A stretch of 64,000 nt of DNA from an uncultured Chloroflexia bacterium (GCA_963788375.1 CAWBGT010000016.1:94078-158077), one strand, 5' to 3'; shown: positions 41,263-58,614, counted from the stretch's first letter. Numbers and translations are program-made. Notes: a model not told the origin generated them from the sequence alone.

Positions 41263-42507
41263 TCAGGGCTTGTTGGCGACAACGAGGCAGATGGGCGGGA
41301 GGCGATGCCAGAGAACCTGACGCACCGCGAGGATCTGCCCAAGCTCCCGGATTGCCTCGCCGTCGAAGTAGTCGATCGTGCGGTGATCCCAGCCAATTCG
41401 TCGCGCCCTGCGTAGGGTCTCGGCCAACAGGCCGCCGCGACCGTTCTCGATCACCACTAGGGTGCCCCCCGGTGTGAGGACATCACGGACTGCGCGCAGG
41501 TAGGCTCCGCGATCCGGCACGACGACGAGCACGCTCTTGGAGAACACGACGTCGAACCGATCGCCCGCCACGGACGCAAGGCGGCCGTCGTCGAGTCTGA
41601 ACTCAACACGATCGGCAACGCCGTGCGACCAGGCCTCCGCTGTTGCGCCTGCCTCGAACCCGCCCTCGATGTCGATGCCGACGACTGAGGCCCCTCGCAT
41701 CGCGAATAGACTAGCCATCCGACCACTCCGCGAGCCGATCTCCAGCACGCGCTTTCCGTCGAGGTCACCGATCGAAACCAGAGCTTGGCCGACGAGACGC
41801 TCCCACGGCCCACCGCCCCACTCCACGAAGTAGGCGAGGGACTCCGGACTGGCGGGTGGAGCGGCCTCGTTTGCTTGGCCGGGATGGCTGGTGATCACGG
41901 TCTCCCTCAGCAAGGCAAGGTCGCCCCGCGTCGACCTGTGCGTCAGGTACTTCGCCTCGATCTCCAACTTCTGGGGCAGGACTGTCGCGCGGTAGGCGCG
42001 GTCCAGGTCGGCCGCCGTTGTGGCACGACGGCCGTCCGCACGGGCGACCTCGAGTGCCGCATCCGCCAGGATCGACTCCTCGTTCCGGAAGGCAACAGAC
42101 GCCGCGCCCGTGATACCGGGTTTCGCCCCGAAGACCAGGGCGTGGAGCGGATCCGCCGGGTCCACGTACCGCGGATCCTCCGGGCGCGGACCGACGAGGA
42201 GCATGTCGCCACGCACGACGTTCCAGAGTTGGGGCAGCTCGTCCATCTTCGTCCGGCGCAGCAGGCGGCCCAGCGGCGTCACCCGCGGATCCCCGCCGGC
42301 CGTGATCCCGGGTCCTGCCGTAGCGGCACCGGCACGCATCGTTCTCAGCTTGTAGAGCGTGAAGGTCCCGCCCGGCCGCACCCGCACCGCCCGATGGAGC
42401 GCGGGCCCGGGCGACGTCAGCCGGACGGCCAGCCCCAGCGCGAGGATCAGGGGCCCCAGCACCAGGAGCGCCGCGGCAGCTAGGAGCCGCTGGATCACGC
42501 CGGGCAT
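41263..42507 (-). CDS. Fusion protein: PglC-like small phosphoglycosyl transferase (Bac_transf) plus class I SAM-dependent methyltransferase domain
   Basis: N-terminus 'LVLGPLILALGLAVRLTSPGP…KLRTMR…MDELPQLWNVVRGDMLLVGPRPE' is the monotopic PGT core. The C-terminus has the SAM motif 'VLEIGSRSGRMASLFAMRGASVVGIDIE'. ATG at 42507. Confidence 0.7.
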   Translation of the reverse strand: MPGVIQRLLAAAALLVLGPLILALGLAVRLTSPGPALHRAVRVRPGGTFTLYKLRTMRAGAATAGPGITAGGDPRVTPLGRLLRRTKMDELPQLWNVVRGDMLLVGPRPEDPRYVDPADPLHALVFGAKPGITGAASVAFRNEESILADAALEVARADGRRATTAADLDRAYRATVLPQKLEIEAKYLTHRSTRGDLALLRETVITSHPGQANEAAPPASPESLAYFVEWGGGPWERLVGQALVSIGDLDGKRVLEIGSRSGRMASLFAMRGASVVGIDIEGGFEAGATAEAWSHGVADRVEFRLDDGRLASVAGDRFDVVFSKSVLVVVPDRGAYLRAVRDVLTPGGTLVVIENGRGGLLAETLRRARRIGWDHRTIDYFDGEAIRELGQILAVRQVLWHRLPPICLVVANKP

Positions 42508-43190
42508 TGCAGGCGTCCGACGAGGTGGGAGCGAACGGGCGGAATCGCATGCAGGAGGGGGTAGGCCAGGGGCGTCAGCGGCCCCAGGCGGCGCGCCAGC
42601 GGCGGCGCTACGGTCAGTGAACGCACCTCCCGCGACCAACCCGGGAACAGCCGGCTCAGCCGCCGGCCAGGGAGACCGTGCACCGCCTTGTTGCCCGGAT
42701 TGCCATACCGCAGGTCGTACCAGATGAGCCACCCCCCTGGCCGGAGAACCCGGGCGATCTCGCGAGCCACCGCCTCCTCCATCGCCGCCGAGGGGATGGA
42801 GGACAAGAGCGTGACGGCAGAGACCACATCGAACTGCGCGTCGTCGAAGGGTAGGTCGTCCGCGGAGGCCACCAGGAACTCCGCCAGCGGGACTGCCTCC
42901 TGGGCATGCTCGACGCGATCCGGCAGCAGGTCCACGCCGGTCGCGACCACGTCGGGCCAGCGGGAGAGCGTCCACCCAAGGAGGCTCCCGTCGCCGCAGC
43001 CCACGTCCAGCATGGCCGGCACCCGATCCGCCGGGAGTGACCTCGCGAGCAGCTCCAGCAATCGCCGGTCCCGGTCGTCGCTGAGACGTGCGTAGCCGCG
43101 GTTGGAGCGGTCCCAGAGTTGGGCACGCCCGGACGCGTCGTACCCGTGGTAGGCATCACGGATGCGCTGCTCGTCCGTCATCGCCGCCAT
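42495..43190 (-). CDS. Class I SAM-dependent methyltransferase
   Basis: 'LDVGCGDGSLLGWTL' motif I and 'VLRPGGWLI' motif. Overlaps its neighbours by a few codons. Confidence 0.65.
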   Translation of the reverse strand: MAAMTDEQRIRDAYHGYDASGRAQLWDRSNRGYARLSDDRDRRLLELLARSLPADRVPAMLDVGCGDGSLLGWTLSRWPDVVATGVDLLPDRVEHAQEAVPLAEFLVASADDLPFDDAQFDVVSAVTLLSSIPSAAMEEAVAREIARVLRPGGWLIWYDLRYGNPGNKAVHGLPGRRLSRLFPGWSREVRSLTVAPPLARRLGPLTPLAYPLLHAIPPVRSHLVGRLQCPA

Positions 43191-44146
43191 CGTCCGCCCA
43201 GGATCGCCACCCAAGAGCCGATCCCGTAGCCCAGGTGCATCGCCGCCAGCGCCGCCGGCATCAGCAGGCGGATCGGCAGGCTTCGACCACGAGCGAGGAA
43301 CGCCGCCCCGAACAGCCCGGCCGCGTAGCCGCCCGCGGCCAGCGCGAAGGCCGGACGCCAGGCGACCACCGAGGTGATGGCGGCGGCGGCGAGGGAGGCG
43401 ACCAGTGCGGCCGGCGCCAGGTGCCGGGGACGGATCGCCTCGGGCCGCACCGCCGCGAGGGTCACCTTGGAATGCCCGTACCAGTAGTACTGGCGGTACA
43501 GCGAGCCCAGCGTCCTGCGTCCCAGGTAGCTGGACAGGATCGACGGGTCCAGGCGGATCCGGCCGCCGCCGGCACGGATCCGGGCATTCATGTCGTCGTC
43601 CTCGCTCCGCAGGAGGCGCGGATCGTAGGGGCCGACGCGGTCCAGGACGCTGCGCAGGTAGACGCCGAGGTACACGGACTCCGCGTCGCGCGCCTCGCCC
43701 TCAAAGTGGAAGGACGAGTCGCCAACCCCGGCGCGAGACTGGAGGGCCGCGGCGATCGCCCCCGCGACCAGGCCAGTGGAGGCCGGGCGCATCGGGCCGC
43801 CCGCCACGGCTGCACCCGTCTCGTCGAGCACGGCAGCCGCGCGCTCCAGGTAGTCGGGTGCGAGGCGGGACTGGGCGTCCACCATGGCCACCGCGTCGAC
43901 GTCGCCGTCGAGGGCTGCGATGGCCACATTCAGCGCCGAGGCCCGGTCGCCGGCCGGGTTCGCGTGGACCACGATCCGTTCGTTCCGGCTCGCTCGCTCT
44001 GCAGCAACCTGCTGCGTGGCGTCACGGGATGGTGCCACGCAGACGTGGATCCGCCCGGGCGGCAGCGTCTGTGCCTGGATCGTCGCCAAGCAGTCGGGAA
44101 GCAGGGCGGCGCCATCGCGCACGGGGACGATGACGTCGATCCTCAT
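43178..44146 (-). CDS. Family 2 glycosyltransferase with C-terminal TM helices
   Basis: 'IDVIVPVRDGAALLPDCLATIQAQT' GT-A N-terminus and a DxD-like motif. ATGA overlap with the upstream gene. Confidence 0.7.
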   Translation of the reverse strand: MRIDVIVPVRDGAALLPDCLATIQAQTLPPGRIHVCVAPSRDATQQVAAERASRNERIVVHANPAGDRASALNVAIAALDGDVDAVAMVDAQSRLAPDYLERAAAVLDETGAAVAGGPMRPASTGLVAGAIAAALQSRAGVGDSSFHFEGEARDAESVYLGVYLRSVLDRVGPYDPRLLRSEDDDMNARIRAGGGRIRLDPSILSSYLGRRTLGSLYRQYYWYGHSKVTLAAVRPEAIRPRHLAPAALVASLAAAAITSVVAWRPAFALAAGGYAAGLFGAAFLARGRSLPIRLLMPAALAAMHLGYGIGSWVAILGGRWRR

Positions 44147-45114
44147 CGCGACAGCGCCCTCGCCGCGGCGAGACCGGCTCGAAGCGCCGCGAGGCGGCGA
44201 CCAGCGTCGGGTTGCAGCAGGACCGCACCACCAACCGCGCGGAGCCAGAGAATCAACAGGCCGGTCACCATGCCCGCCGGTCCGTGCCACCGCCCCAGGT
44301 AGCGGACCATGCTCGCAGCGTGCCAGGGCCCGAACCGGTAGTCGCCCGGGGCGCTCGCGCCGCCGACATGATCCACGACCGCAGCGGGCAGATAGCGGAT
44401 CGGCCAGCCGGCTCGCGTGGCGCGGCGACACAGGTCTGCGTCCTCGAAGTACATGAAGTAGTGCTCGTCGAAGCGGCCCAGTTGCGAGAACGCCTCCCGG
44501 CCGACCGTGACGCACGCCCCGGAGACCATGGATACGTCGATGACCGTGGTGGCAGTCACCGCCTGATCATATTCGGCCGCCATCCGTGTCGATCCCACGA
44601 CGGCAGCCCCGCCCGGCAGGCGGCCGATCACGTCGGCGAGCCGATGGAGGCCAAGGCCCCGCACCAGCAAGTCGTCCGGTTTCGGCACCAGGCCAGCGGA
44701 TCGCTGGACCACACCATCCACGCCCACGAGGCGGGGCCCGACAAGCGCCCGTCCCCCGGCAGCGTCGACTTCGGAGGCCATCGCGGCCAGCGCGCCGGGG
44801 CGAAGGGTGGCATCGCTGTTGAGGAAGATGAGGGTGTCGCCCGTTGCCAGGGCGGCCCCCTGGTTCGCTCCGCTGCCGAAGCCTCCGTTGCGTGGGCTAG
44901 CCACGACCAGCAGGCGCTCATCCCGAATGGCCCGCAGCCTGTCCACGCTGTCGTCTCCGGACGCGTTGTCCACGACGACAACCTGCGTCGCCGCGTCCTC
45001 GAAGGCGCTGAGGACCGTCTTCTCGGTGAGCTCCGGTGTGCGGTAGTTGACGATAACGACCGAGGTCGAGTTGGGTCGGGTCGGCACGGGATGGCTCCGT
45101 GATCTGGGCACCAC
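44143..45114 (-). CDS. Family 2 glycosyltransferase (rhamnosyltransferase/WbbL-like)
   Basis: 'VVIVNYRTPELT…VVVDNASGDDS…LNSDA' GT2 motifs. Confidence 0.75.
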   Translation of the reverse strand: MVPRSRSHPVPTRPNSTSVVIVNYRTPELTEKTVLSAFEDAATQVVVVDNASGDDSVDRLRAIRDERLLVVASPRNGGFGSGANQGAALATGDTLIFLNSDATLRPGALAAMASEVDAAGGRALVGPRLVGVDGVVQRSAGLVPKPDDLLVRGLGLHRLADVIGRLPGGAAVVGSTRMAAEYDQAVTATTVIDVSMVSGACVTVGREAFSQLGRFDEHYFMYFEDADLCRRATRAGWPIRYLPAAVVDHVGGASAPGDYRFGPWHAASMVRYLGRWHGPAGMVTGLLILWLRAVGGAVLLQPDAGRRLAALRAGLAAARALSR

Positions 45115-45363
45115 TGATCGAGCGCGCGCAGAGTCGGTCCCATCCTATCTGGCGCCATCTGTGGAGCGCTCCGCTTGTCGGTGGTTGACAATGTGAAGGT
45201 GCTGTGCGGTTCGATGGCCTGGAGAGACGTCCTCGATCTTGACGACGGCACCCTCGAGGGGAATGCCGCGGTGTTCGGCGTACTTCTTGAGCAGACCCAG
45301 TGTTCCGCTGGTGGCGAACCGGCTACCCGTGCCTTCTGGGGTCAACTAGCCGCTCACTACGCC

Positions 45364-46824
45364 TGGATGAACCATCCTGGTGTCCACGCAAGCGGCGAAC
45401 TTGAAGCAGCGATCTCGGGTGCGCGGGTGGTCGCGGGCGAGCCCCCTGGCAGGGTCGGCCGCGGGCCCGAGCACGTTGTACACGTCCTGACGCAGGCCCT
45501 TCAGGTGGGTGGACATACCCGTCAGGTCTGGCGGTGGATTGGCGCCGATGCTGGCCGCCGGTCGTCGGTCGTACTAACGGGACAAGGGTGGCACCCGATC
45601 CCGGAAGCCTTGTCGCACGCAGCCACGTCTAGCGGAGGCCGCATCCTCGACCTGGCGTCCCGGCCCGGGCTCCTCCAGGACAGGGCCACACGATTGCGCA
45701 AGGCCCTCGCCACAGCCAATACGGTCGTGATCCACGCTCACCCGTTCGACGTCGTGCCCCTCCTCTCCCTCGAAGGCTGGCAGACACGACCACCTGTCCT
45801 CACCGTCAATCACGCTGATCACAGCTTCTGGATCGGCTTGCGGTCCACGGACGTCGTCGTAAGTTTCCGGGAGCACGGAGCCAAGTTAGCTGCAGATCGT
45901 CGGGGAGTTGCCCCCGAGCGATCAAAGGTCGTTCCCCTGCCCGTGGACCCTCCTCAAGGCCGATCCCCAAGCACCTGGCGAGCCGACAACGGCTTGCCGG
46001 CCGACGCATTCGTGACGCTGAGTATCGCCTCTCAGTACAAATACCGTCCCTGGGGAGATCTGGACTTCATCGACGCGATCGGTTCTTTGGTTGCGCGGAT
46101 GCCGAACCTGCACGTGCTGGTGGTCGGTCCTGAACCGACTGGACGGTGGGCGCAGAGTGAGCTGGCGACGGGCGGGCGCTTTCGAGCCCTTGGGATCAGG
46201 CGCGATGTTGCTGACCTGCTGGGTGCGGCGGATGTGTATCTGGACTCGTTTCCATTGAGTTCGCTGACCTCGATGCTCGAGGCCGGTAATCGTGGGATCC
46301 CGGTGATGAAGTTGAGATCGGGACCTGGCCTCGAGATCCTCAGCGGCGACTCGCCCGGCCTGGATGAGACAGTCATCACGTTCTCGACAACGAACGAGAT
46401 GGAGCAAGTACTGCGGGCATTGGCCGAGGATGCCGCGAGCAGGACCAGCCTCGGCGCTCGTACGGCGGATGCAATCCACCGCGTATCGTCCGGTGCGGGC
46501 TGGATGCATGCCGTGGAGGAGGCATATGCGGCCGCCGCGCACATGCGCGCGACCAACGCACCACCCCTAGTGGCTCTGGCTGAGCCAAACTACGGGTCCC
46601 TCGATCGCCGTCTCGCGGGCCTCCAGCTCCAAGGGGTGGGCCTCCGCGATGCAGTTCGAAGCCACCTTCGCTACCTCCCCGTCCAGGACCGCTCGCGACT
46701 CTTGTTCGCACTGCGACGCGACCACCCCCTGTCCAGCGCCGCCGCGGTCGTGCCAGATTGGGCTCGCAGCAGGCTTCGCGGCTTTGCCGAAACAGGTACC
46801 GCGGAGCGATTGGCGGGGCGCTGA
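45364..46824 (+). CDS. Putative GT-B (GT4-like) glycosyltransferase of atypical composition; start uncertain
   Basis: The C-terminal 'LLGAADVYLDSFPLSSLTSMLEAGNRGIPVM' resembles the GT4 EX7E region. Lower GC and frequent rare codons (tta, cta, aca, agt, aaa) compared with its neighbours. The ORF is open upstream to 45175. Confidence 0.45.
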   Translation, partial: WMNHPGVHASGELEAAISGARVVAGEPPGRVGRGPEHVVHVLTQALQVGGHTRQVWRWIGADAGRRSSVVLTGQGWHPIPEALSHAATSSGGRILDLASRPGLLQDRATRLRKALATANTVVIHAHPFDVVPLLSLEGWQTRPPVLTVNHADHSFWIGLRSTDVVVSFREHGAKLAADRRGVAPERSKVVPLPVDPPQGRSPSTWRADNGLPADAFVTLSIASQYKYRPWGDLDFIDAIGSLVARMPNLHVLVVGPEPTGRWAQSELATGGRFRALGIRRDVADLLGAADVYLDSFPLSSLTSMLEAGNRGIPVMKLRSGPGLEILSGDSPGLDETVITFSTTNEMEQVLRALAEDAASRTSLGARTADAIHRVSSGAGWMHAVEEAYAAAAHMRATNAPPLVALAEPNYGSLDRRLAGLQLQGVGLRDAVRSHLRYLPVQDRSRLLFALRRDHPLSSAAAVVPDWARSRLRGFAETGTAERLAGR

Positions 46825-46843
46825 ACCCTTGGGGCACCTACTC

Positions 46844-48195
46844 TCAGGCCCTACGGCGCTTCTTGAGGCGTGCCGAGTAGAGTTCGGCGTCATCGCCGAC
46901 CAGCACCTTGGTCGGCAGCTTGAACGCCGCGAGTTGGCCAGCGCACGCGGTCCGGATGCGGACCTTCAGATTGGCGGCAGTCTCCGGCTTGTCGGTGACC
47001 ACCCGTGCGACCACCGCGTGGCCCGAGCAGCGCGTGCGGCTCCCCGAACACGGCGACATCGCGGATGTTGTCGAGGTCCAGGATCGCCTGCTCGACTTCA
47101 GCCGGGTAGACCTTCTGGCCTGCCACGTTGATGAGGTCGCTGTCTCGCCCGAGGATCCGCAGCCAGTCCCCATCCACCTCGACCAGGTCCTGAGTGTTGA
47201 ACCATCCATCGTCGTCGAAGCCGCTTGGCGCGTTGAGGTAGCCCACCATCGCATAGTCGGATCTGATCCACGAGATCCCGTCAACGACCTTCGTCTGGAA
47301 GCCATCACCGCCGATCCGCACCCAGAGGGAGCCGTCGTCGCGGGACTTCGACCGCAGCACGCCGAGCTCCGACAGCCCGTACGTCTGCTGGAGCACGACC
47401 CCCGGAAATGCCGCGCGGACGCGATCGAGGGTCTGCTGGGGCATAACCTCCGTGCCGTAGGTGATCTTCCGCAGCGATCCCAGTTCATGCTGCTCAAGCA
47501 CGTCGGAGCGGATGAGCAGGTTCAGGAACGAGGGCGTGGTGGGCAGGACCTCGACGCGGTGCTGCTCGATCGCCCGGCAGATCGTCACGACGGATCGATC
47601 GCCCACGGTGACCACCGTTCCGTGGCCGCCCAGGATCGAGAAGATCGTGTTGATGCCGCCGAAGTGGTCCAGCATGAGGAAGGCGATGGCGACGATCGGC
47701 CGGCCAGGTCGCCGGTACTTCTCCAGGACGACAGCCATGTCGTGGAGAATTGCTTTCGGGTCGCCCGGAGCTGCCGGACGAGAACAGGATCAGGCCGGGC
47801 GAGCCAGCCTCGATCTGGTCGGTGAGCAGCGGGTGTTCAGGGGTGGTCGCCGTGCGAGCGATGGTTCGTTCCGCGCCACGGCAATCGATGATCCAGCCAG
47901 CCTCCGACAGGTCCAGGATCGTGCTCATCTCCACGACGGCCTCGGCGGTCACCGGGACGATGGTGCAACTGTTCCGCAGGAGCGCCAGGAGCAGTGCGAA
48001 GACCTCCGGCGAGTAGTCGCCCAGCACGACCGCGATGTCACCACTCTGCACGCCCGCGGCGTTCAGCCACCGGCCCGCGGCGTCCGTCTCGTGCAGCAGA
48101 TCGCCATAGCTAACTGACCGCCCCCGATCGACGAAGGCAATCGAGCCGGGCGCCGTCGCGAAGCGCTCCAATAGGAGCCCCAGGATCTCGATCAC
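46844..48195 (-). CDS. AMP-dependent synthetase/ligase (ANL superfamily; candidate acyl-ACP/CoA ligase) with two apparent +1 frameshifts in G-runs
   Basis: Three ORF pieces in different frames cover consecutive ANL regions. Removing one g from 'tccgggcgaccc' restores the AMP-binding motif SSGSSGDPKAI. Removing one g from 'ctcgggccacgcgg' joins …FGEPHALLG to HAVVARVVTDKPE…LAAFKLPTKVL. Confidence 0.65.
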
Positions 48196-49107
48196 GTGAC
48201 GACGAACGCCATGACTTCGGGCACCGGCACGCCCGGCCGTCGCGGGATCGCCGCCCAGGCCGATGCGTACTGGTGGATCTCGAACCCCGCCGTGTTCAGG
48301 TGGTCGATGATGTCGGCGGCCGTCCGATACAGGTAGATGTGGTCCGCGTTGGCGGCGTTGAGGGCCGTTGCCAGGAACGCTCGACCGCCTGGACGAAGCA
48401 TGGCCCGGAGGCCGCGGAGGAACCCGACCGGATCCTCAAGGTGCTCCAGGACCTCCACGCACACCAGGTGGTCGACGGGCGCCGGCAGGTGCTCCATAAC
48501 GTCCTGCACCCGGACCACGAAACGGTCCCCAGACCCGAATGACGCGACGTGCCGCTCCGCGAACCGCGCGGACGAGGCGCTGATGTCGAAGGCCGTGCCC
48601 GTCAGGTCCGGCGCCCCAGCTAGCAGGCGGCGCGAGTAGATCCCGGTCCCCACGCCCACGTCGTAGAAGGTCCCGGGTCCCGCGCGTCGCGCCTCCTCCA
48701 CGAAGGCGTGGTCGAAGAAGCGGAGCTGTCGATAGTGGTGCGGCCAGAGGAAGTGAGAGAGAAGCAGGCCGGGCAGGTAGCACGCGGTCATGTACTCGTC
48801 GTTCGCGTAGACCTCGGCGGCCACCTCCGCGTAGGTTCGGTGGCGGTACTCGCGAGTCTGCTCGAACGTCGCCTGGAGCCGGAGTGCCTCGAGGGCGAAC
48901 CTCGAGTAGCCATCAACGGCGCGGGCGATGTCTGCAGGATCCGGCAGGAGGCGGACGAATCGTGTCCTCCGTGTCCGCGGCCCAGCCCTCACCCAGGAGC
49001 GCCCGCGTGCGCGGCACGGCGTCCCGGAAGACGGGCGACGCCGATCTGAACTGCGCCTCAAGGCGGTCCAGCGCGGGCGTTGGGACAGGTTCTCCTGGGT
49101 CAGCCAC
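48192..49107 (-). CDS. Class I SAM-dependent methyltransferase (apparent frameshift around 48960-49060)
   Basis: GTG start overlaps the ACP stop. The N-terminal 60 aa is in one frame, and the remainder ('…YDVGVGTGIYSRRLL…VLEHLEDPVGFLRGLRAMLRPGGRAFL') in another. Confidence 0.55.
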
Positions 49108-49339
49108 CGGCGAGCTGCTCCTCGACGACCGCCAGGATGATCGGGTAGGAGGTCATCACCGCGACGTCGTCGTCCGGCACCGTGATGCCGAAGGCCTGCT
49201 CCAACGCGATCACCAGGTTCATGTGCCGCACGGAGTCCCACGTGTCGACTGTGTCCGTGCTCGTGTCCGGGCCGACGTCGGCGGGGTCAAGCTCGAGCAT
49301 CGCCGCGACGACTTCTCGCAGCTTGTCCTCAGTAGGCAC
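49100..49339 (-). CDS. Acyl carrier protein
   Basis: 79 aa with a 'DTWDSVRHMNLVIALEQAFGI' phosphopantetheine-attachment Ser motif. Confidence 0.8.
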   Translation of the reverse strand: MPTEDKLREVVAAMLELDPADVGPDTSTDTVDTWDSVRHMNLVIALEQAFGITVPDDDVAVMTSYPIILAVVEEQLAGG

Positions 49340-51146
49340 GGATCACCTCGACGAAGGGGGGTGGTGTAGCATCTGGCGATTCCGGGAGATCCAGTTCGTA
49401 GTCGCGTCGGCCGTCCGGATGGGCGCGGACCAGCGTGAACCCCGCGCGCTCCCAGAACTCCCGGACCTGCCCGTTCTTGGCCGTGGGCAGATAGGTGGCC
49501 CCCAGGCGGCGGCATCCGCGCGCGCGCAGGTCATCGAACACCACCGGCCAGCAGGCGTCCTCCACGCCTCGGCCCAGGATCCGGCAGCTGAGCAGAAAGG
49601 AGTCCACCTTCGCAGTTTCGCCCTCGAAGGTCACGATCGCCACTCCGGTCAGGCCGGAATCACCGAACCTGTCTTGGACGTTGACCGAGAGCACGTCCGC
49701 CAAACCGGAGCCCATCAGATCCAGGATCTCGGCCTCGGTCCGCCGGCGCGTTGTGAGGTTGAACTGGTTGGATTTCTGCGTGAGCTCGGCAATCCTGGGC
49801 GCGGACGCGCGGTCGTTGAGCCTGATCGTGACGCGGATCCCAAGGGAGGCAAGGTAGGCCTCCTGGGTAGCGAAGTTGACCCGGTCCGCCAGCGCCAGCT
49901 CCCGGATCCTGTACTGCGCGGTCTTGTCGGTGTCCGCGATAGTCGGACCCCCGGCCTGGAACAGATCCGCGATGTCGTCCAGCATCCGCGGGTAGGTTGA
50001 GAGGTCCGCTGGTACCTGAAACACGCGAACCGCCGGCAGTCGGGTGCGGACGGCGTCGCACTCGATGGCGGCGTCATCCACGAACACGAGCGAATCCAGC
50101 CCGATCCCAAGGGCCTCGGCGATCTCCCGAAGGTTGTCCGCCTTGGCGCCCCAGTTGATCCGCCGGATGGTGATGTCTTCGTCGCGCAGGACCATGTGGG
50201 GGTGCCGGGTGAAGACCTCGGCAACGTCCGCCTCATTGTTCCTGGAGCAGAGGCCCAAGAGCACGCCGTTCCGCCGCAAGGCGAGAAGCCGGTGCTGCGC
50301 CTCCCAGTAGATGCCCGCAGGGTTGCCCTGCGGTGCCAGGGTGATGCCGCCGATCAGGTCCTCGCCGATGGTCCCGCCCCACAGAGTCCCATCGCAGTCC
50401 AGGATCAGCGCTTTGAGGAAGTAGGAGTCGAACCCACGGCTCCGCAGGAAGACCTCCTGGGCAAGCGCGTCGGCGAACGTCGGCGAGAACGGGGCTGCGA
50501 AGCGCCTGTAGGACCGAGGATCGTGGCTGCGTTCCCAACCGATGCGTGCGCAGAGGGCGGAGGTATCGATGAGCTCGACATTGGGGTAGGCCTTGGCGGC
50601 CCCCAGCAGCACCTCGTTGAACGCGGCGATGGCCGCCGCGGAGCTGCCCGCGTCCGGGCCGGTGGCGGGGCTGCCCATCGCATGGAGCGTGCCGACGAGG
50701 ATGCGCGGAACCGATGCTGCGGTTGCGAGCGCGAGGTCAAGCTCGGCGCGGTAGCCGTTCACGCGGTCGAGCAAGAGATCCGGCTCCAGGTGCCCCGAGC
50801 GGGCCTCGAATGCCGGCATGAGTGCGTCGAACCAGTCGAGGATGACGATCGCATCCACTCCGCCCGCGGCAAGCTCCCGGACACCCCCGACGCGGTCCGC
50901 GATGGGTCCGAGCGACACCGTCGCTTGCAGATCACCGAGGACGGCGTGCTTCCGCAGGAAGGGCGCCAGAAGGTCCAGGGTGACGTTGCCGGAGAGCCCG
51001 ATGCGGACGGTGCGCGCATCCAGCACCATGCCCTCCACCCGGGTAACGAGCCGAGTGACGGCCGCCAGGTCATCGCCGGCGCGAGCAAGGGCGTCACGCG
51101 CCTCCTTGGGCCCCGGCTCGCCGGTCACCGGGATCGCGTCCTTCAC
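49329..51146 (-). CDS. FkbH-like protein (HAD-IIIC phosphatase-like acyl/glyceryl-ACP loader with C-terminal GNAT-like domain)
   Basis: 'LILDCDGTLWGG' (DxDGTLW, diagnostic of the FkbH/HAD-IIIC family), then 'VFVDD' and a GNAT-like C-terminus. GTG start whose GTGA overlaps the upstream gene. Confidence 0.7.
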   Translation of the reverse strand: MKDAIPVTGEPGPKEARDALARAGDDLAAVTRLVTRVEGMVLDARTVRIGLSGNVTLDLLAPFLRKHAVLGDLQATVSLGPIADRVGGVRELAAGGVDAIVILDWFDALMPAFEARSGHLEPDLLLDRVNGYRAELDLALATAASVPRILVGTLHAMGSPATGPDAGSSAAAIAAFNEVLLGAAKAYPNVELIDTSALCARIGWERSHDPRSYRRFAAPFSPTFADALAQEVFLRSRGFDSYFLKALILDCDGTLWGGTIGEDLIGGITLAPQGNPAGIYWEAQHRLLALRRNGVLLGLCSRNNEADVAEVFTRHPHMVLRDEDITIRRINWGAKADNLREIAEALGIGLDSLVFVDDAAIECDAVRTRLPAVRVFQVPADLSTYPRMLDDIADLFQAGGPTIADTDKTAQYRIRELALADRVNFATQEAYLASLGIRVTIRLNDRASAPRIAELTQKSNQFNLTTRRRTEAEILDLMGSGLADVLSVNVQDRFGDSGLTGVAIVTFEGETAKVDSFLLSCRILGRGVEDACWPVVFDDLRARGCRRLGATYLPTAKNGQVREFWERAGFTLVRAHPDGRRDYELDLPESPDATPPPFVEVIRAY

Positions 51147-52339
51147 AGCGTAGTCAGCCCGCCGTTGATTCGGATCGTCTCGCCGGTGATGTAATCCGCG
51201 CCCGGTGAGACGAGGAAGGCGACGGCATCCGCCACGTCGGACGGTTCGGCGAGGCGACGAAGCGGCGCCTGGCGCGCCAGGACGAGGCGCGCCTTCTCGG
51301 GAATGTCCGCCACCATCGCCGTCTCGGTCATCGCCGGCGACACGCAGTTGACGTTGATTCCGATCGGGCCGAGCTCCACTGCCAGTGACCGGGCCAGCGT
51401 CGCCAGCGCAGCCTTGCCGATAGCGTACGCAGTCCACTTTGGCGTTGGCGCACCGTCGAGGACGCCGGACGTGACGAATACGATGCGGCCGAACCCCTGG
51501 TCCCGCATCGCAGGCAGCGCCGCCTGCGCCAGGAACAGCCCACCGCGGGCGCCGGTGTCAAGGTGACCCTGGACCTGCGCCCAGCTGAGCTGCCCCAAGG
51601 CGGACGGATCGATGGGCGGCGATGCCGCGTGCACGACCGTGCCCACCGCGCCGAACCGGCGGATCGCGGCCGCAATCAGCTCCTCCACGGACGCCTGGTC
51701 CGCAAGGTCCACGCGAACGGCTTGGGCCTCCGTACCGTCCGCGACGAGCGAGGCGGCGAGCGCTTCCGCGCGGTCCGGACCCGAGTGGTATCCGGCGACG
51801 ATGGCAAACCCGTCACGAGCCAGCGACCGGCAGATGGCCTGGCCGATGCCGCCCGCAGCTCCGGCCACGACCGCCACCTTCGGCCGCTCGGCCAAGGGCT
51901 CCGCCGGCGTCGGTGGTTGGAGGACCCTGACCGTCCCCTTGCCCGTGAGCACGGCCTGGTTCCGCTGGTTGTCGATACGGGTGTTCAGCTCCAGGAGTCG
52001 GTCGCGCTCGTGTTTGGCGGTGACCGAGCAGGTCACCGTCAGCGTGTCGCCCAGGCGCACGGGAAGGAGGAAGTCGAATGCCTGCGAGACCCAGACCGCT
52101 CCGCCCCCCGGCAGCCTTGTGCCGATCAAGGTCGAGAGGAACGACGCCCCGAGCATGCCGTGGACGACGATGTCCTTGAACGGCGTCGTCTCCGCGAAGG
52201 CACGATCAACGTGGAGCGGGTTGTCGTCGCCGGTGAGGTCGACGAAGCGGCGAACGTCGTCGCCCGTGATCACGCGGGTGAGGCTTGCGGTGTCACCGAC
52301 CGCAAGGTCGTCGAACGACCGGAAGCTCACATTACTCAT
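51143..52339 (-). CDS. Bifunctional MaoC-like (hot-dog) dehydratase plus SDR (FabG-like) reductase
   Basis: N-terminal 'DDNPLHVDRAFAE…' hot-dog motif. C-terminal 'VAVVAGAAGGIGQAI' Rossmann and YxxxK-like catalytic region. ATGA overlap with the KAS III gene. Confidence 0.75.
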   Translation of the reverse strand: MSNVSFRSFDDLAVGDTASLTRVITGDDVRRFVDLTGDDNPLHVDRAFAETTPFKDIVVHGMLGASFLSTLIGTRLPGGGAVWVSQAFDFLLPVRLGDTLTVTCSVTAKHERDRLLELNTRIDNQRNQAVLTGKGTVRVLQPPTPAEPLAERPKVAVVAGAAGGIGQAICRSLARDGFAIVAGYHSGPDRAEALAASLVADGTEAQAVRVDLADQASVEELIAAAIRRFGAVGTVVHAASPPIDPSALGQLSWAQVQGHLDTGARGGLFLAQAALPAMRDQGFGRIVFVTSGVLDGAPTPKWTAYAIGKAALATLARSLAVELGPIGINVNCVSPAMTETAMVADIPEKARLVLARQAPLRRLAEPSDVADAVAFLVSPGADYITGETIRINGGLTTL

Positions 52340-53367
52340 TCTTCTCCCGTCCCCCACATCCAGCACGACGCGCCGAACCCGAAGCCAGCGCCTACTCCTG
52401 CGAATACGACGCGATCCCCGTCCGCAAGCCGGCCGGCCGTCACCGCGTCGGCGAGGGCAATCGGGATCGACGCGGCCCCCGTGTTTCCGATTGTTTCCAC
52501 GTTGGTGAACGTCCGCTCGGCGGGTACGTGCATCTTGGCCATGGTGTAGTTGATGATCTGCAGGTTGGCCTGGTGAAAGACAAACAGGTCTACGTCCTCC
52601 ACCGACCAGCCCGCGTCCGCGCAAGCGTCGCGGATCGTCCTTGGCAGGTGCGTGACGGCCTGCTTCCAGGTCGCCAGCCCGTTCATCTCCATCAGGCCCA
52701 AGTTCGGGGTTGCGTCACCCAAGGCGCCACGTCCGCCATCGCGCGTGGCGAATGGGTGTCGTGATCCGCCACCCCGCAGCCGGACTGACTCGAGGTTGGA
52801 CGTGTCCGCATGAAATGCTGCCCCCATGACGCCACGTCCTGCGGGTACGCGACTCAGGACCGCCGCGCCTGCTCCGTCACTGAAGAAGATCGCAGTCTCG
52901 ACATCCGCATAGTCAACGAACGGGCTCAGGATCTCCACACCAACGACGAGCGCGGACTCCAGGCGAGGATCCCGGTGCATCCGGTCCGAGACAGCTGTCA
53001 GGGCACTCACGAACCCGCTGCAATTGGCCTGGAGGTCGTAGAACTGGCCACCTTTGACGCCCAAGTCCCTGTGCAGACGAGCGGCCACCGGCGGGAAGAG
53101 GTAGTCGCCGGAGAATGTGGAGACCACGATCATTCCAAGTTGGCTCGCATCAACCCCAGCCGCCTCCAGAGCCTGACTGGCCGCATCGAGGCTCAGGCTG
53201 GATGCCGTCTGCCCCTCGTCGATGACGAATCGTTGCCGGATGCCGGTCTTCTCCACGATCCACGCCGGAGTTGTTCCCGCGAGCGTCGTCGCACACAGCT
53301 CCTCGTTCGTGTGCCTCCGGGTGCCCAGCGCCCGGCCCGTCCCCACGATCCCGATACCGCCGCTCAT
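52336..53367 (-). CDS. 3-oxoacyl-ACP synthase III (FabH/KAS III-like; may be an acyl- or O/N-acyltransferase)
   Basis: 343 aa thiolase fold with active-site Cys in 'LQANCSGFV' and His/Asn regions conserved. Confidence 0.75.
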   Translation of the reverse strand: MSGGIGIVGTGRALGTRRHTNEELCATTLAGTTPAWIVEKTGIRQRFVIDEGQTASSLSLDAASQALEAAGVDASQLGMIVVSTFSGDYLFPPVAARLHRDLGVKGGQFYDLQANCSGFVSALTAVSDRMHRDPRLESALVVGVEILSPFVDYADVETAIFFSDGAGAAVLSRVPAGRGVMGAAFHADTSNLESVRLRGGGSRHPFATRDGGRGALGDATPNLGLMEMNGLATWKQAVTHLPRTIRDACADAGWSVEDVDLFVFHQANLQIINYTMAKMHVPAERTFTNVETIGNTGAASIPIALADAVTAGRLADGDRVVFAGVGAGFGFGASCWMWGTGEE

Positions 53368-54032
53368 GTCATCGGAGTCGCAGCCACGCCAAGGAGGCGG
53401 CGCAGAGGTTCATTGCCCGACTTGATCTCGCCGAACGTCCCCGCGCGCCCATGCCCGGGGTAGATCATCGCCCCGTCCGGCAGGAGATTCCACACGCGCT
53501 CGATCGATCGGACCAGGCTGGGCTTGTCCTGCTCCGGCAGGCGCACGAGAAACGTGTCATCGCGGTAGATGGTGTCACCTGTGAATACAAGGCCGTCCAC
53601 CAGCAGCAGGCAGCTTCCCGGTGTGTGCCCAGGGACGTGGATCGCCTCAACGCGTCCGCCCTCCCCGTCCCAGACCTTGCCCTCGCCCATGGCTACAAAC
53701 GGCTCGGGCACCGTCATCCGACGGTCCAGCTTGAGGGCCATCATCAGAAGGTTCGAGCCTGCGGCAACCCTCCCGTCTGCCTCATGGAAGAACACCGGTG
53801 CATCGAAGGCACGGCGCAGCGGCTCGGCACTCGCGAGATGATCGAAATGCCCGTGTGTGGCGAAGACGGCGTCCGGCACCGTGGCGCGGCGCTCGAACTC
53901 GGCCACGATGGCCGCGAGGTCCAGCCCCGGGTCGATGACGATGCAGTGTCCGGGCACACTGGACAGGTAGAGGTAGGTGTTCGACGCGAAATCGCCATTG
54001 GCGATCCGGACCACGCGCTCCGCCACTTCCAT
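53364..54032 (-). CDS. MBL-fold metallo-hydrolase (glyoxalase II/thioesterase-like)
   Basis: 'THGHFDH' HxHxDH zinc motif. Confidence 0.7.
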   Translation of the reverse strand: MEVAERVVRIANGDFASNTYLYLSSVPGHCIVIDPGLDLAAIVAEFERRATVPDAVFATHGHFDHLASAEPLRRAFDAPVFFHEADGRVAAGSNLLMMALKLDRRMTVPEPFVAMGEGKVWDGEGGRVEAIHVPGHTPGSCLLLVDGLVFTGDTIYRDDTFLVRLPEQDKPSLVRSIERVWNLLPDGAMIYPGHGRAGTFGEIKSGNEPLRRLLGVAATPMT

Positions 54033-54760
54033 CAGGCGTGTACGCCCCCCAGGAAGATCGTCTGGGCGGTTACGTAGCCGCTGGCAGGGGACGCGAAGAA
54101 GTCGACAACGTTGAGAATGTCGCCCGGAGTGGCCATCCGGGCGAGCGGAAGGTCGGCCACCACCTTCTCAACCTGCTCGCGCGGCAATTGGCGGAGCATG
54201 TCGGTCTCAAGGGCGGAGACGGCCACCGTGTTCACGGTGATGCCATAGCTGGCCAGTTCCTTGGCCAGGACACCGGTCAGAGTCATGGATGCTGCCTTCG
54301 TCGCGGCGTAGACGGAATCGCCGACGGGCTCAAGAGCCGCAGCCATCGAGCCGATGTTCACGATCCGTCCGTATCCGGCCCGCCGCATCAGCTTGGCGGC
54401 CTCACGGGAGGTGAAGAACACGCCCAGAAGGTTGGTGCGAACCATTTCGTCGGCCCGCTCCGAGGGCATCACCATCGCGTGCATCGAAGTCAGGACCGCG
54501 GCGGAGTTCACGAGGATGTCCACGCGGCCTTGCTCCCGGCCGATCGCAACAAACGCGGACCGGACCGCATCGCCATCGCCCACGTCCAGCCTGTGGTGGG
54601 TATACCGCTCGTCCTCGACGGTCCCAGGCCCGCGGCTCATACCCACCACCATCGCGCCGGCGTCCAGGAAGTGCCGCACGAGCAGAGCACCCAACCCCCG
54701 GCTGGCGCCCGTCACCGTCACCACGCGACTCGAGTACAGGGAGGGCGCGACTGTGGTCAC
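54032..54760 (-). CDS. SDR-family oxidoreductase
   Basis: 'VTVTGASRGLGALL' cofactor motif and a Ser-Tyr-Lys triad. Confidence 0.75.
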   Translation of the reverse strand: MTTVAPSLYSSRVVTVTGASRGLGALLVRHFLDAGAMVVGMSRGPGTVEDERYTHHRLDVGDGDAVRSAFVAIGREQGRVDILVNSAAVLTSMHAMVMPSERADEMVRTNLLGVFFTSREAAKLMRRAGYGRIVNIGSMAAALEPVGDSVYAATKAASMTLTGVLAKELASYGITVNTVAVSALETDMLRQLPREQVEKVVADLPLARMATPGDILNVVDFFASPASGYVTAQTIFLGGVHA

Positions 54761-55053
54761 GCGACGACGAGTTCCAGGATGTAGTCGCGGAGGGTCGCGA
54801 CAGTGGTGTAGGGCGACACGGGTCGGGACATCGCCCGGTCGTCGGCGAGCGCGACATCAAGCCCGTACTCGATGTTGAGCGTCGTCTCGACGTCCGTGAT
54901 GACGGAGACGAACTCCAGCGAATCGAGGGCGGCGTCCTTGCCGAACAGGCCCGTGTCCACGGTCGGGGAGATGCGCTGTCCTGGATCACGCTCGGCGTTG
55001 AGGGCCTCGATCGCCGCGAAGATCACGGCCTCCACGGTTTCAGGTCGCAGCAT
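54757..55053 (-). CDS. Acyl carrier protein-like (second ACP)
   Basis: 'GKDAALDSLEFVSVITDVE' DSL phosphopantetheinylation motif. Start at MLRPET chosen to limit overlap with the upstream GNAT gene. Confidence 0.6.
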   Translation of the reverse strand: MLRPETVEAVIFAAIEALNAERDPGQRISPTVDTGLFGKDAALDSLEFVSVITDVETTLNIEYGLDVALADDRAMSRPVSPYTTVATLRDYILELVVA

Positions 55054-55627
55054 TGACATCCTCACGAGGTTCCGCGCCCCGCACAAGGGCGCTCATGCGG
55101 GGCAGGGCCACCGTCTGGTACTCGTCCTCGCTCATGCCGAGGCAGATTGCATCGCAGAACCGGCCGCCGATCAGGTAATGCTCTCGCAGCCGGCCCTCCT
55201 CGCGCATGCCGAGGAACAGTTGCCACTTCACCATCAGCGCGTTGCCGTCCGCGACGGTTCCGTACACGCGGTGCAGACCCAGTTCGTCGAACGCCAGGCG
55301 GTAGAGGAGCAGCATCGCCTCAACCGCCGCAGGGATCCCGCGAACCGCCTCCGGCTCTCCGATCAGGAACCGGGCAGGTTCCGCTCGCCGGTTGACGGTG
55401 TCGATCGCCACGAGCGACAACATCCCCACGGGTCGTCCACTCGCCAGAGCGATGATGAAATTCAATTCCGAGTCCGGTCGTGTGGCGATCCACGCGCGCT
55501 GATCGTCCACGGTGGCGGCGCCGCGGTTCAGCATCGCAGCGCGACCGCTCGATCGCCACCGCAGCGTGATCTCCGCGTCGTGAGGTGCGAGGGGCCGGAG
55601 GACTACGTATCGTCCACGAAGTTCCAT
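55040..55627 (-). CDS. GNAT-family N-acyltransferase (RimL/Acetyltransf_3-like)
   Basis: GNAT fold pattern (the 'LVAIDTVNRRAEPARFLIG…HRVYGTV' core). Start placed at MELRGRYVVLRP. Confidence 0.6.
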   Translation of the reverse strand: MELRGRYVVLRPLAPHDAEITLRWRSSGRAAMLNRGAATVDDQRAWIATRPDSELNFIIALASGRPVGMLSLVAIDTVNRRAEPARFLIGEPEAVRGIPAAVEAMLLLYRLAFDELGLHRVYGTVADGNALMVKWQLFLGMREEGRLREHYLIGGRFCDAICLGMSEDEYQTVALPRMSALVRGAEPREDVNAAT

Positions 55628-55676
55628 CGTGGCCGAATCATAGCCGCGGCGGACCCCGCTTCCCACGGCCACCCCC

Positions 55677-57098
55677 CTAGTCATGGCGTCCCGCCCAGAG
55701 CCACCGAGCCGAGGCCACGCCGGCCAGGATGCCACCGACGCCGAGGATGATCGAGATCAGCATGTCGTCCAGCGAAAGCCGGGCGAGCTGCGCCACCACG
55801 AGCACGGCACAGGTGACCGCAATGGCAAGCTCCTCCCTCCCGAACCGGGGGGGCACTAGCTCGCGGGCCGCTACGGACACGGCGATGTAGTAGATGACGT
55901 ATGCACCCAGGTAGCCGATCCCTGCCCCGGCGATCCCCACAGCCTGAAGCCCCACCACAGAGAGGACGATGAGCGCGAACCCGCCGATCGCTTCAACCGC
56001 GAGGAAGGTACCGCTGGCGCCGCGGGCAAGCAGGACGAACGAGAGCGTCCAGGCCGGCAGTTTGAGCATGTCGCCGGCCAGCTGCCAGCCCAGGACGTCG
56101 ACGGCGGGGGCAAACTCACCCGAGTACAGGACGGTCACCAGGATTGGCGCGGCGGCGCTGGTGAGGAGGATCAGCGGAATGCACACCATCAGCACGAAAC
56201 GGAGCTGGCGGCGGGCCGTGCCCTCGATGGCCGGCGTGCCGCTGATCGCGGACACCCGCGGGTAGTAGTCCTGGGCCATGGCGTTGAGCAGGAACGCCAG
56301 ATAGGCGACGGAGATGGTCGCCGCAGCCCGGTAGTAGCCCACATCGGCAGTCTGCAGCATCGCCAGCACGAGGAACGGAATCGCGAGTTGCGCCCCAGCT
56401 CCCAGCAGCTGGCTGACCGTGAAAGGACCGCCGAACCGCAGCAGGGCGCGGAGATCCGCCCCGCGTCGCTGTCGGTCGATCCTCGCAGCAACCCGCGGTA
56501 CCACCATGAGCGCCACGGCCATTGCGACGATCCACCCGACGAGTGACCCGATCAGGAGACCGGCGGCAACGGCGCCCGTCCCCCCCACGAAGACGGCGGC
56601 AACTAGCGCCAGTGCCATGCCTGCGGCACTCGCGGCGGTCACGGTGGCCACCCACTTGACGCGATGCAGCCCGTTGACGAGTCCCGCCTCGACCCCGGCC
56701 AGGGCCGTGAAGACAACCGCGATCCCGACCAGGACGACGTCAAGTTCGCTGCCGCCGTCGCCGAACAGGAAGGTGGCGATCTGGTCCCGGAGCGCGATCA
56801 ATCCGAGTGCAATTGCCGACGCGGCCGCGAGGACGCCCAGGCGCGCGGCCTGGTGCGCGGAACTGATTGCCAGCGCGTCTCCGCTTGCGGTCGCCAGGGC
56901 AACCTGCCGGATGAGCCCCGTGGCAATCCCGAACCCGCCGACGAGGACGCCGAGGGTGAGCAGGCTCGACAGGAGACCGACCGTGCCGGTCCCGACCGGG
57001 CCCGCCATCACAGCGATCAGCTTCGCGCTCAGGGCTCCGGCAATCAGCGACACGACCGACCCGCCAGCCAGCGTCGCCGTGGCTCGCGCGATCGTCAT
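55677..57098 (-). CDS. Wzx-like polysaccharide/oligosaccharide flippase (MOP superfamily)
   Basis: About 474 aa with 12-14 TM helices in the Polysacc_synt pattern. ATGA overlap with the upstream aminotransferase. Confidence 0.7.
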
Positions 57099-58197: not shown

Positions 58198-58614
58198 CTA
58201 GGTCACGGCGGCAAGGAAGTCCGAGTACTCGCGGAAGTAGTCGGCCTCGTCGTAGTGAGCCGAAGCGAGCACCAAGGAGACCGAGCCCGACGAGAAGTTC
58301 TCGAGCTCGCGCCAGATCATCCTGGGGACATAGAGGCCGTAGTACGAGCGGTTCAGGAAGTAGCTGCGTCGGTCCGCGCCATCATCGAGGATGACGTCGA
58401 AGCTGCCCGACACGGCGATGATGAATTGCTGGAGGTCCCGGTGCGCGTGACCCCCGCGACTCTCGCCCCCCGGCACGTCATAGAGATAGTAGACCCGCCG
58501 AATCTCGAACGGCACGTCGACCCCACCCTCGATTGGGGTGAGGTTGCCGCGGGGGTTGGCTATGCGCCGCAGGTCGATGATTTCGGGCGTCTGAGAGGGC
58601 CATCGTGTCGCCAA
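58198..58614 (-). CDS. Sugar 3,4-ketoisomerase (FdtA/WxcM-like cupin)
   Basis: '[47 protein letters not shown]' matches the FdtA family. Only a TTG start is available in frame. Confidence 0.65.

Follow-up and report, generated by a model that had tools for sequence, protein, structure and literature searches.

We examined a 64,000-nucleotide stretch of DNA from an uncultured Chloroflexia bacterium (GCA_963788375.1 CAWBGT010000016.1:94078-158077, hereafter the window) and found that its gene for an FkbH-like loader, together with the genes for an acyl carrier protein (ACP1) and a methyltransferase, belongs to a ten-gene cassette within a surface-glycan operon. The cassette runs in the order GNAT acyltransferase, a divergent carrier-protein candidate (ACP2), FabG-like short-chain dehydrogenase/reductase (SDR), metallo-beta-lactamase-fold (MBL) hydrolase, FabH, MaoC dehydratase fused to an SDR (MaoC::SDR), FkbH-like loader, ACP1, methyltransferase, and ANL (AMP-forming) ligase. 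On balance, we consider it probable that this cassette, loaded by the FkbH-type enzyme, provides the N-acyl group for a dTDP-3-amino-3,6-dideoxyhexose that adjacent genes of FdtA/FdtB type produce. The original prediction had singled out the FkbH-like protein, its ACP, and the methyltransferase as a group found outside a polyketide synthase (PKS) context. That observation is confirmed and its interpretation is partly supported, but the three-gene view is incomplete.

The FkbH-like gene occupies positions 49329-51146 on the minus strand and encodes 605 amino acids plus a stop codon, where 606 amino acids had been predicted; the interval first proposed, 49100-51146, covers this gene and ACP1 but leaves the methyltransferase and the ANL ligase outside. 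Its GTG start shares the bases GTGA with the stop codon of the MaoC::SDR gene upstream. The NCBIfam model TIGR01686 (FkbH domain) matches residues 244-571 with 239.8 bits (E=3.9e-71), against a curated cut-off of 146.65 bits, and the HAD-IIIC model TIGR01681 matches with 53.6 bits, while in Pfam there is a HAD match below threshold only. The diagnostic HAD-IIIC/FkbH motif that had drawn attention to the gene is present as LILDCDGTLWGG at residues 247-258. Three domains can be distinguished: an N-domain resembling that of BF1531 (approximately residues 1-243), a HAD-IIIC phosphatase domain with the motifs DxDxT (250-254), S301 (motif II), K335, and DD (357-358), and a GNAT-fold domain carrying the invariant triplet S520-C521-R522. 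In an AlphaFold2 model built on an alignment of 22 homologues (mean pLDDT 83.8), the C-terminal domain folds like a GNAT acetyltransferase and superposes on many of these in Foldseek (TM-scores of 0.6-0.75 relative to the targets), in agreement with the GNAT-like C-terminus that had been proposed. The first two domains of the model superpose on BF1531 of Bacteroides fragilis (PDB 3slr; Foldseek E=1.6e-23), which also matches by sequence over the N-terminal and HAD domains (E=6e-32). Sequence and Foldseek searches of the PDB returned no solved true FkbH; the one relative with a solved structure is BF1531, a protein of uncharacterised function whose crystal does not include the GNAT-like domain. 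No GTDB species representative comes closer than 53%.

We compared the protein with three types of loader, using synteny-defined representatives from annotated plasmids as stand-ins for the characterised FkbH, OzmB, and Tmn16. The canonical FkbH type was represented by a protein of 341 amino acids from a 3-hydroxyacyl-CoA dehydrogenase, ACP, acyl-CoA dehydrogenase, and HAD-IIIC cassette (the FkbK-J-I-H arrangement), the second type by the ZmaN orthologue of a zwittermicin cluster, and the tetronate type by a protein of 658 amino acids (L004:11338-13314) from an RK-682-like cluster on a Streptomyces plasmid, which also holds a 3-ketoacyl-ACP synthase III (KASIII) and an overlapping ACP. These stand-ins score 285, 261, and 275 bits with TIGR01686, respectively, and their overall identity to the window protein is 30%, 24%, and 32%, rising to 37-39% for the tetronate type when the FkbH domain alone is considered. 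K245, D250, D252, T254, W256, K335, D357, and D358 are invariant across all of these proteins, as are N460-Q-x-N-x-T465, S520-C521-R522, and R526-G527. C521 is the sole cysteine conserved throughout this alignment, and position 301 of HAD motif II is kept as serine or threonine in both alignments that were made. Moreover, a profile comparison (hhalign) with the tetronate-type protein gave a probability of 100 over 537 columns, the N-domain included. By sequence, then, the window protein is a bona fide FkbH-domain protein. The prospect that it would align instead with generic HAD phosphatases lacking the FkbH N-domain is ruled out by the SCR, NQxNxT, and HAD residues that it has in common with the loaders. 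An SGNH-like catalytic function of the N-domain was likewise weighed and rejected, as the conserved serine and asparagine of that domain are not kept in the tetronate type. For OzmB, formation of a phosphoglyceryl-S-enzyme has been described, followed by dephosphorylation and transfer of the glyceryl group to its ACP (review, PMC9057759); by homology, C521 may provide the thiol of such an intermediate.

A stand-alone ACP directly follows the loader gene, as had been reported. ACP1 (49100-49339, minus strand) has 79 amino acids and a WDS motif at its phosphopantetheine site, and it is recognised by the Pfam PP-binding model (29.7 bits, cut-off 20.8) as well as by NCBIfam ACP models. Its GTG start overlaps the stop codon of the loader gene by 11 nucleotides, an arrangement of translational coupling that can be read directly from the junction. 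The same WDS motif occurs in the ACP of all 41 loci, among 82, in which a small open reading frame directly follows an FkbH-like gene, and also in that of the tetronate cluster.

The genes are conserved as a set. Full-length homologues of the FkbH-like protein, of about 600 amino acids and 42-68% identity, are numerous, and the gene tables available for two of them list the same genes in the same order as in the window. In a scan of one genome per species, 80 loci were taken and searched by tblastn with the window proteins. The colinear set, comprising GNAT, ACP2, SDR, MBL hydrolase, FabH, MaoC::SDR, FkbH, ACP1, and ANL ligase, with a methyltransferase at one of two positions (before the GNAT gene or after ACP1) in 9 of 14 cassettes, was recovered in 14 distinct loci, that is, in every locus (14/14) that holds a cassette-type orthologue. 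When the FkbH domains are clustered, 13 of the 14 loci, with identities of 45% or more, fall together with the window; the remaining locus, L022, was excluded from this clustering because its match is in pieces. Species that carry the cassette number at least 14 and represent six phyla (Chloroflexota, Myxococcota, Pseudomonadota, Bdellovibrionota, Actinomycetota, and Acidobacteriota), the sources including a Limnocylindrales metagenome-assembled genome (MAG), Polyangiaceae, Piscinibacter, Massilia, Duganella, and other Burkholderiales, Halobacteriovoraceae, Blastococcus, two Modestobacter, and Acidobacteriales, and a variant is present in one Bacteroidia MAG (Bacteroidota). Genes for FdtA and a DegT aminotransferase lie beside the cassette at 10 of these 14 loci, and two of the four loci where they do not are short contigs that end near the cassette. 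In L022, from an uncultured proteobacterium MAG, the genes for FdtA, DegT, the MBL hydrolase, and FkbH at 1400-12400 are matched in multiple tblastn pieces and ACP2 reads LDLL in place of LDSL; either this copy is decaying or its assembly is poor.

In the window, the two flanking genes encode both the 3,4-ketoisomerase (FdtA/QdtA) and the 3-aminotransferase (FdtB/QdtB) of the dTDP-3-amino-3,6-dideoxyhexose (Fuc3N/Qui3N) pathway. The FdtA/QdtA-type dTDP-4-keto-6-deoxyhexose 3,4-ketoisomerase (58198-58620, minus strand) matches PF05523 with E=6.7e-52, FdtA (2pa7) with 1.3e-32, and QdtA with 1.3e-29. Its open frame reaches 58953, yet approximately the last 130 residues alone match and relatives are about 136-141 amino acids long; the upstream extension of about 110 codons overlaps a divergent GT-C-like gene (58676-59890, plus strand), and the true start is probably near 58620. 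The DegT-family sugar 3-aminotransferase (57095-58192, minus strand) is DesV/QdtB-like (PDB 2oga, 1.1e-137; QdtB, 3frk, 5.8e-108). A Wzx-type flippase (55677-57134, minus strand; Polysacc_synt_3, Polysacc_synt) lies within the same operon, which extends from about 58.6 down to 46.8 kb and reads FdtA/QdtA, DesV/QdtB-like aminotransferase, Wzx, and then the ten cassette genes from GNAT to ANL ligase. Around it are genes for GT2, GT1-like, and GT-C glycosyltransferases, a Wzy_C protein, a Bac_transf initiating transferase, and a Polysacc_synt_2 dehydratase. The description of the locus as a surface-glycan region devoid of a PKS thus agrees with its Wzx/Wzy-type genes; no stop-to-stop frame in the window is longer than 883 codons, which excludes a megasynthase or PKS, and no fatty acyl-AMP ligase was found within it.

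Further observations were made on the window at large. A single open reading frame of 570 amino acids at 41263-42975 (minus strand) joins a Bac_transf phosphoglycosyl transferase (residues 161-361) to a class I methyltransferase (404-545), and may be a true fusion or may result from another indel. Positions 1-27000 hold housekeeping genes of ordinary appearance, with a GT4 (WecA/MraY-like) protein followed by ATP synthase, MurA-like, and MreB genes, as well as a Tad-type pilus ATPase beside a receiver-domain ParA/CpaE-like protein. The window has a G+C content of about 70%, and the region that contains the glycan genes and the acyl cassette (44000-58000) lies at 0.65-0.70, compared with about 0.67-0.735 in most other parts; this lower G+C content and the patchy distribution of the cassette over six phyla are compatible with horizontal acquisition.

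The genes upstream of the loader encode candidate acyl-modifying enzymes. MaoC::SDR (51143-52339, minus strand, 398 amino acids) combines a MaoC dehydratase (MaoC_dehydratas, 6.4e-20) with a FabG-like SDR (adh_short_C2, 3.8e-49), shows the motifs GDDNPLH and YxxxK in its translation, and has FabG enzymes as the closest PDB relatives of its SDR part. FabH (52336-53367, minus strand, 343 amino acids) is a KASIII with a Cys-His-Asn triad (NF006829, 291 bits; cut-off 249), whose closest PDB relatives are genuine FabH proteins (4dfe, 1.4e-53; E. coli FabH, 2e-48), ahead of any specialised KASIII. It is followed in the upstream direction by the MBL-fold hydrolase (53364-54032, minus strand, 222 amino acids), a candidate thioesterase with an HGHFDH motif (Lactamase_B, 1.3e-25), and by the stand-alone FabG-like SDR (54032-54760, minus strand, 242 amino acids), with the motifs TGASRGLG and YAATK (adh_short, 1e-38). 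The GNAT acyltransferase (55040-55684, minus strand, 214 amino acids; Acetyltransf_3), whose PDB relatives are SpeG and AAC(6'), is a candidate for the amide-forming enzyme, and its gene is conserved beside that of ACP2 across the cassettes.

ACP2 (54757-55053, minus strand) has 98 amino acids and no Pfam match, and is probably a second carrier protein of a divergent family. Its orthologues are present in every cassette locus and share the pattern LFG...LDSL...V, with an LDSL motif that is invariant in them apart from the LDLL variant mentioned above. A profile of the family gives weak matches in the PDB (E=0.015 to 0.7), nearly all of them to ACPs, and a single-sequence model of low confidence (pLDDT 64) has the four-helix topology of ACPs, which are also its top fold matches at E of about 1. 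The protein also bears a C-terminal LTDDRAMS..SPF motif and is missed by the carrier-protein models of both Pfam and NCBIfam.

The presence of an FkbH-like protein, an ACP, and a FabH raises the question of a polyketide-type product. The core of the tetronate 'glycerate-utilisation operon' consists of an FkbH-like protein, an ACP, and a FabH-like enzyme (PMC7489565), and the window holds an FkbH-like protein with N-domain, an ACP, and a FabH. The tetronate loaders with their ACPs (RkE/RkF, Tmn16/Tmn7a, and Mad7/Mad8; compared through the L004 representative) have the same three domains as the window protein, including the SCR cysteine, at 32-39% identity, which makes them its closest relatives in architecture, and they likewise have an overlapping downstream ACP of WDS type and an adjoining KASIII gene. 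One could therefore envisage a polyketide-type block (methoxymalonyl- or hydroxymalonyl-ACP) or a tetronate, made by a small secondary-metabolite cluster that merely lies beside glycan genes. We regard this as highly improbable. Unlike tetronate systems, the window has no PKS or fatty-acyl supply, and its KASIII is of the genuine FabH type, far nearer to primary FabH (E of about 1e-53) than to the KASIII of the tetronate cluster (29% identity). Moreover, the cassette is embedded in a Wzx/Wzy glycan operon, between Wzx/FdtA/DegT and glycosyltransferases, and FdtA and DegT co-occur with it across phyla. A tetronate product is thus unlikely, given that there is no beta-ketoacyl supplier and that the conserved partners are a GNAT and an amino-sugar pathway.

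The comparison with methoxymalonyl-ACP formation, on which the original prediction had drawn by treating FkbH, an ACP, and an O-methyltransferase as the core of such a pathway, fails. The loaders FkbH, OzmB, and ZmaN (methoxymalonyl- and hydroxymalonyl-ACP; compared through L006:7992-9017 and L005:7989-9068) share with the window protein the TIGR01686 domain, the invariant HAD residues, the cysteine motif, and a dedicated ACP. They are, however, only about 340-366 amino acids long, have no N-domain, are 24-30% identical to it, and need the dehydrogenases FkbK and FkbI as well as an FkbG-type O-methyltransferase. No tblastn match to FkbK-like or FkbI-like queries (taken from L006) was obtained at E<=1e-3 in the whole 64-kb window, and the methyltransferase is a class I enzyme of the Methyltransf_12/11 kind. 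Methoxymalonyl-ACP is excluded by the lack of FkbI and FkbK homologues in the window, the type of the methyltransferase, and the lack of a PKS.

The preferred reading, namely an N-acyl group for the 3-amino sugar, can be laid out as a pathway whose substrate, order of steps, and product we infer from homology and gene content. The FkbH-type enzyme would accept a 3-phosphoglyceryl group from 1,3-bisphosphoglycerate on Cys521, a residue of its GNAT-fold domain, and the HAD domain (Asp250/Asp252) would strip the phosphate before the glyceryl group is handed to ACP1. MaoC::SDR might then dehydrate glyceryl-ACP1 to the enol of a pyruvoyl group and reduce it to lactyl-ACP1, or the unit might stay glyceryl. 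The FkbH loading modules that are taken to give D-lactyl units carry dehydratase and ketoreductase domains. The conversion envisaged here would mirror the rule put forward for these modules, by which 1,3-bisphosphoglycerate and ACP give D-lactate-ACP (PMC7901079). FabH could condense the ACP1-bound primer with malonyl-ACP2, the stand-alone FabG-like SDR could reduce the resulting 3-keto group, and the methyltransferase could add a methyl group. The GNAT would finally move the finished short hydroxy- or methoxyacyl chain from ACP2 to the sugar amine, forming an amide. The MBL hydrolase may edit or release thioesters, and the ANL ligase may load or reload a carrier protein with malonate or with released acid.

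A carrier-bound, glycerate-derived unit that is modified to become an N-acyl cap has parallels in suomilide BslA (FkbH-OMT-ST), vioprolide, corramycin, and the D-lactyl starters of trans-AT PKSs. These loaders are domains of non-ribosomal peptide or polyketide megasynthases, whereas those of the window are discrete proteins and the acceptor that we propose is a nucleotide sugar. The FAS-like genes in the flagellin glycosylation islands of enterobacteria (Acp, LuxE, LuxC, CaiC, and FabG) resemble the window in that an ACP of their own, a ligase of ANL type, and reductases are placed within a glycan locus to make an acyl group other than acetyl, and the tetronate genes of Vibrio cholerae O1 provide another ACP-dependent N-acyl decoration in a glycan locus. 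Both of these gene sets differ from the window in that they have no FkbH-like loader, FabH, MaoC, or MBL genes.

A simple reading is the one first suggested for the locus. On this view, (O-methyl)glyceryl-ACP would arise from the FkbH-like protein acting with ACP1 and the methyltransferase, and would be transferred directly to the sugar as an N-glyceroyl or N-(O-methylglyceroyl) group, the FabH, reductases, and dehydratase serving another purpose or a second substituent. Precedents exist for such a group. In suomilide, FkbH-like and O-methyltransferase domains have been proposed to give a 2-O-methylglycerate cap (PMC13122637), and in the flagellin of Campylobacter jejuni 11168 pseudaminic acid is N-acylated by 2,3-di-O-methylglyceric acid (PMC3068675). 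The glycosylation locus of this strain contains a gene with an FkbH domain, cj1302, and the strains 12664, in which cj1302 is a pseudogene, and 12661, which is without cj1301, lack that sugar (PMC7099621). This likeness to the window is drawn from the literature and not from sequences; the link between gene and product in C. jejuni, where loss of the methylated glyceroyl amide goes with loss of cj1302 or cj1301, is correlative, and the acceptor there is a nonulosonic acid as opposed to the 3-amino-3,6-dideoxyhexose proposed here. For the N-glyceroyl pseudaminic acid of Tannerella forsythia, the genetic basis has been described as unknown and a 'major challenge' (PMC5378307). A direct glyceroyl group also accords with a minimal operon in another genome (L028) that has no FabH gene and is described below. 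On the other side, FabH, MaoC::SDR, the SDR, the MBL hydrolase, and ACP2 are strictly colinear with FkbH and ACP1 in 14 of 14 loci, the FkbH domains of cassette type cluster separately, the end-to-end gene overlaps suggest a single pathway, and some cassettes (L014 and L018) are without a methyltransferase. We therefore think it unlikely that glyceroyl or O-methylglyceroyl is transferred directly in the window. The idea of an ACP-bound, glycerate-derived acyl unit for the glycan remains the best reading; because FkbH, ACP1, and the methyltransferase belong to the conserved ten-gene cassette, the acyl group is probably more elaborate than (O-methyl)glycerate.

The last two genes of the cassette require separate comment. 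The methyltransferase (48192-49107, minus strand) is a class I S-adenosylmethionine-dependent enzyme (Methyltransf_12/11/25 in Pfam) that also matches Methyltransf_2, below cut-off, as well as UbiG and BioC, all weakly; an FkbG-type model is absent from its listed Pfam and NCBIfam matches. Its GTG start at 49107 overlaps the ACP1 stop by 8 nucleotides, which upholds the overlap that had been noticed, but the frame opened by that start closes some 66 codons on, and the core recognised as Methyltransf_12/11, down to 48192, is in another frame. As the first approximately 41 residues align with homologues in one frame, a single +1 insertion near 48930 accounts for the break. The ANL ligase (46844-48195, minus strand; AMP-binding matches in Pfam and NCBIfam, with malonyl-CoA synthetase models among the weaker ones) does follow the methyltransferase as stated, though two +1 insertions, one near 47760, inside the SSGSxGxPK loop, and one near 47035, distribute it over three frames, as seen from tblastn with intact orthologues and from reading the junctions. 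Intact relatives have about 450 amino acids. In total, three +1 insertions (one in the methyltransferase, two in the ANL ligase) fall within 2.3 kb (46844-49107), and the eight upstream genes of the cassette are intact. An independent short-read assembly (ERR15459710) from the same or a near-identical organism encodes an identical FkbH-like protein, a methyltransferase of 304 amino acids in one frame, exactly 1 nucleotide shorter than in the window, and an ANL frame that is open over at least 349 codons. Since this assembly has both genes in frame, the three frameshifts are probably sequencing errors in the deposited assembly; alternatively, they may mark strain-specific pseudogenes.

The ANL gene adjoins ACP1 in every cassette, and this suggests another way of charging the carrier, in which the ANL ligase loads a free acid and the HAD-GNAT protein acts on some other phosphorylated substrate or as a mere phosphatase, the function that its NCBI name, 'HAD-IIIC family phosphatase', implies. 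The low identity of the FkbH-like protein to loaders of characterised type (24-39%) could be taken in the same sense, as could the deposition of BF1531, its only solved relative, under the description of a phosphatase-domain protein of uncharacterised function. Yet the SCR cysteine and the NQxNxT motif, which would be superfluous in a plain phosphatase, are invariant alongside the HAD residues in all loader types, and many FkbH-ACP loci, including the minimal L028 operon, have no ANL gene. We judge loading by the ANL ligase in place of the FkbH-type enzyme to be quite unlikely.

Several points weigh against loading by the FkbH-type enzyme followed by chain extension and N-acylation of the amino sugar. 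The role of Cys521 and the use of 1,3-bisphosphoglycerate are carried over from enzymes that are 24-39% identical, and no biochemical study of any cassette member was found in the literature searched, nor did our search return a paper characterising this cassette or any FkbH-like enzyme of a glycan locus. The identification of ACP2 is weak. FkbH and ANL are both candidate loaders, and since there are also two carrier proteins, the assignment of one to the other is ambiguous. The role of FabH is uncertain, and the sole chemically known glycan precedent, that of C. jejuni, is a C3 acid without a C2 extension; we know of no N-acyl group described from a glycan that corresponds to the C5 product predicted here. 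Homologues of RmlA, RmlC, and RmlD, the three Rml proteins queried, were not found in the window, and the Rml genes may be located elsewhere in the genome. Finally, the frameshifts in the methyltransferase and ANL genes could mean that part of the cassette does not function in this strain.

FkbH-like genes found elsewhere may point to a wider use of such loaders in glycan biology. In a Mesoterricola sp. MAG (L028, 15057-19715, minus strand), a minimal operon comprises FdtA, DegT, an FkbH-like protein of 560 amino acids, an ACP (NWDSLKH), a GNAT (Acetyltransf_3), and a VOC protein (Glyoxalase_4), and contains no FabH, ANL, MBL, or reductase genes. This gene content fits a glycerate-derived N-acyl donor borne by an ACP, and the operon appears to represent FkbH-dependent N-acylation of a 3-amino sugar in its simplest natural version. 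Elsewhere in L028 (9386-15021, plus strand) and in L031 (5457-12365, plus strand), an FkbH-like gene is grouped with genes for an ACP with WDS motif, MaoC, SDR, MBOAT, and a 367-amino-acid protein with no Pfam match; these groups adjoin RmlA/RmlD in L028 and a Wza-type exporter in L031. By analogy, they resemble Dlt systems, which pair a carrier protein with an MBOAT, the FkbH-like protein replacing the adenylating enzyme, and they could O-acylate an exported polysaccharide with glyceryl or lactyl groups. MaoC and SDR genes are also found beside FkbH-like genes in about 12 further loci.

While the position of the window gene outside a PKS context is correctly described, it is not rare. Among 1.84 billion cluster representatives, 13,506 match the FkbH-like protein at E<=1e-3 and 5,373 at E<=1e-30. 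Stand-alone FkbH-like proteins outside PKS clusters are common, though named 'HAD-IIIC family phosphatase' in databases, since nearly all of the best 150 representatives are stand-alone proteins of about 570-620 amino acids and only three are megasynthases. An FkbH-like coding region, 35-37% identical to the window protein, is also present on Sinorhizobium meliloti pSymB (L003, 12001-13212; approximately 631-632 kb of the plasmid) and on about 40 other Sinorhizobium megaplasmids, with no listed gene in most PLSDB tables.

More tentatively, we hypothesize that the cassette constitutes a phylum-spanning pathway to a new class of sugar N-acyl groups, assembled on dedicated carrier proteins, in which a glycerate or lactate primer is extended once by a private FabH, reduced, and methylated, giving for example a methylated 3,4-dihydroxypentanoyl-type group that is amide-linked to dTDP-Fuc3N or dTDP-Qui3N, and that pairs of a stand-alone FkbH and a WDS-type ACP form a general acyl-donor module for glycans, serving N-acylation via GNATs and O-acylation via MBOAT/Dlt-like exporters. 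This broader proposal is possible, and we hold it with more doubt than conviction. The surface sugars of bacteria owe part of their antigenicity, of their recognition by phages and lectins, and of their vaccine epitopes to acyl groups other than acetyl, and the locus offers a testable hypothesis in which an FkbH-type loader draws on 1,3-bisphosphoglycerate for glycan decoration. The conserved cassette itself occurs among Burkholderiales of soil and freshwater as well as in Geodermatophilaceae, Myxococcota, Acidobacteriota, and others. More generally, the evidence suggests a role as acyl-ACP loaders for thousands of proteins that now bear the annotation 'HAD-IIIC family phosphatase'.

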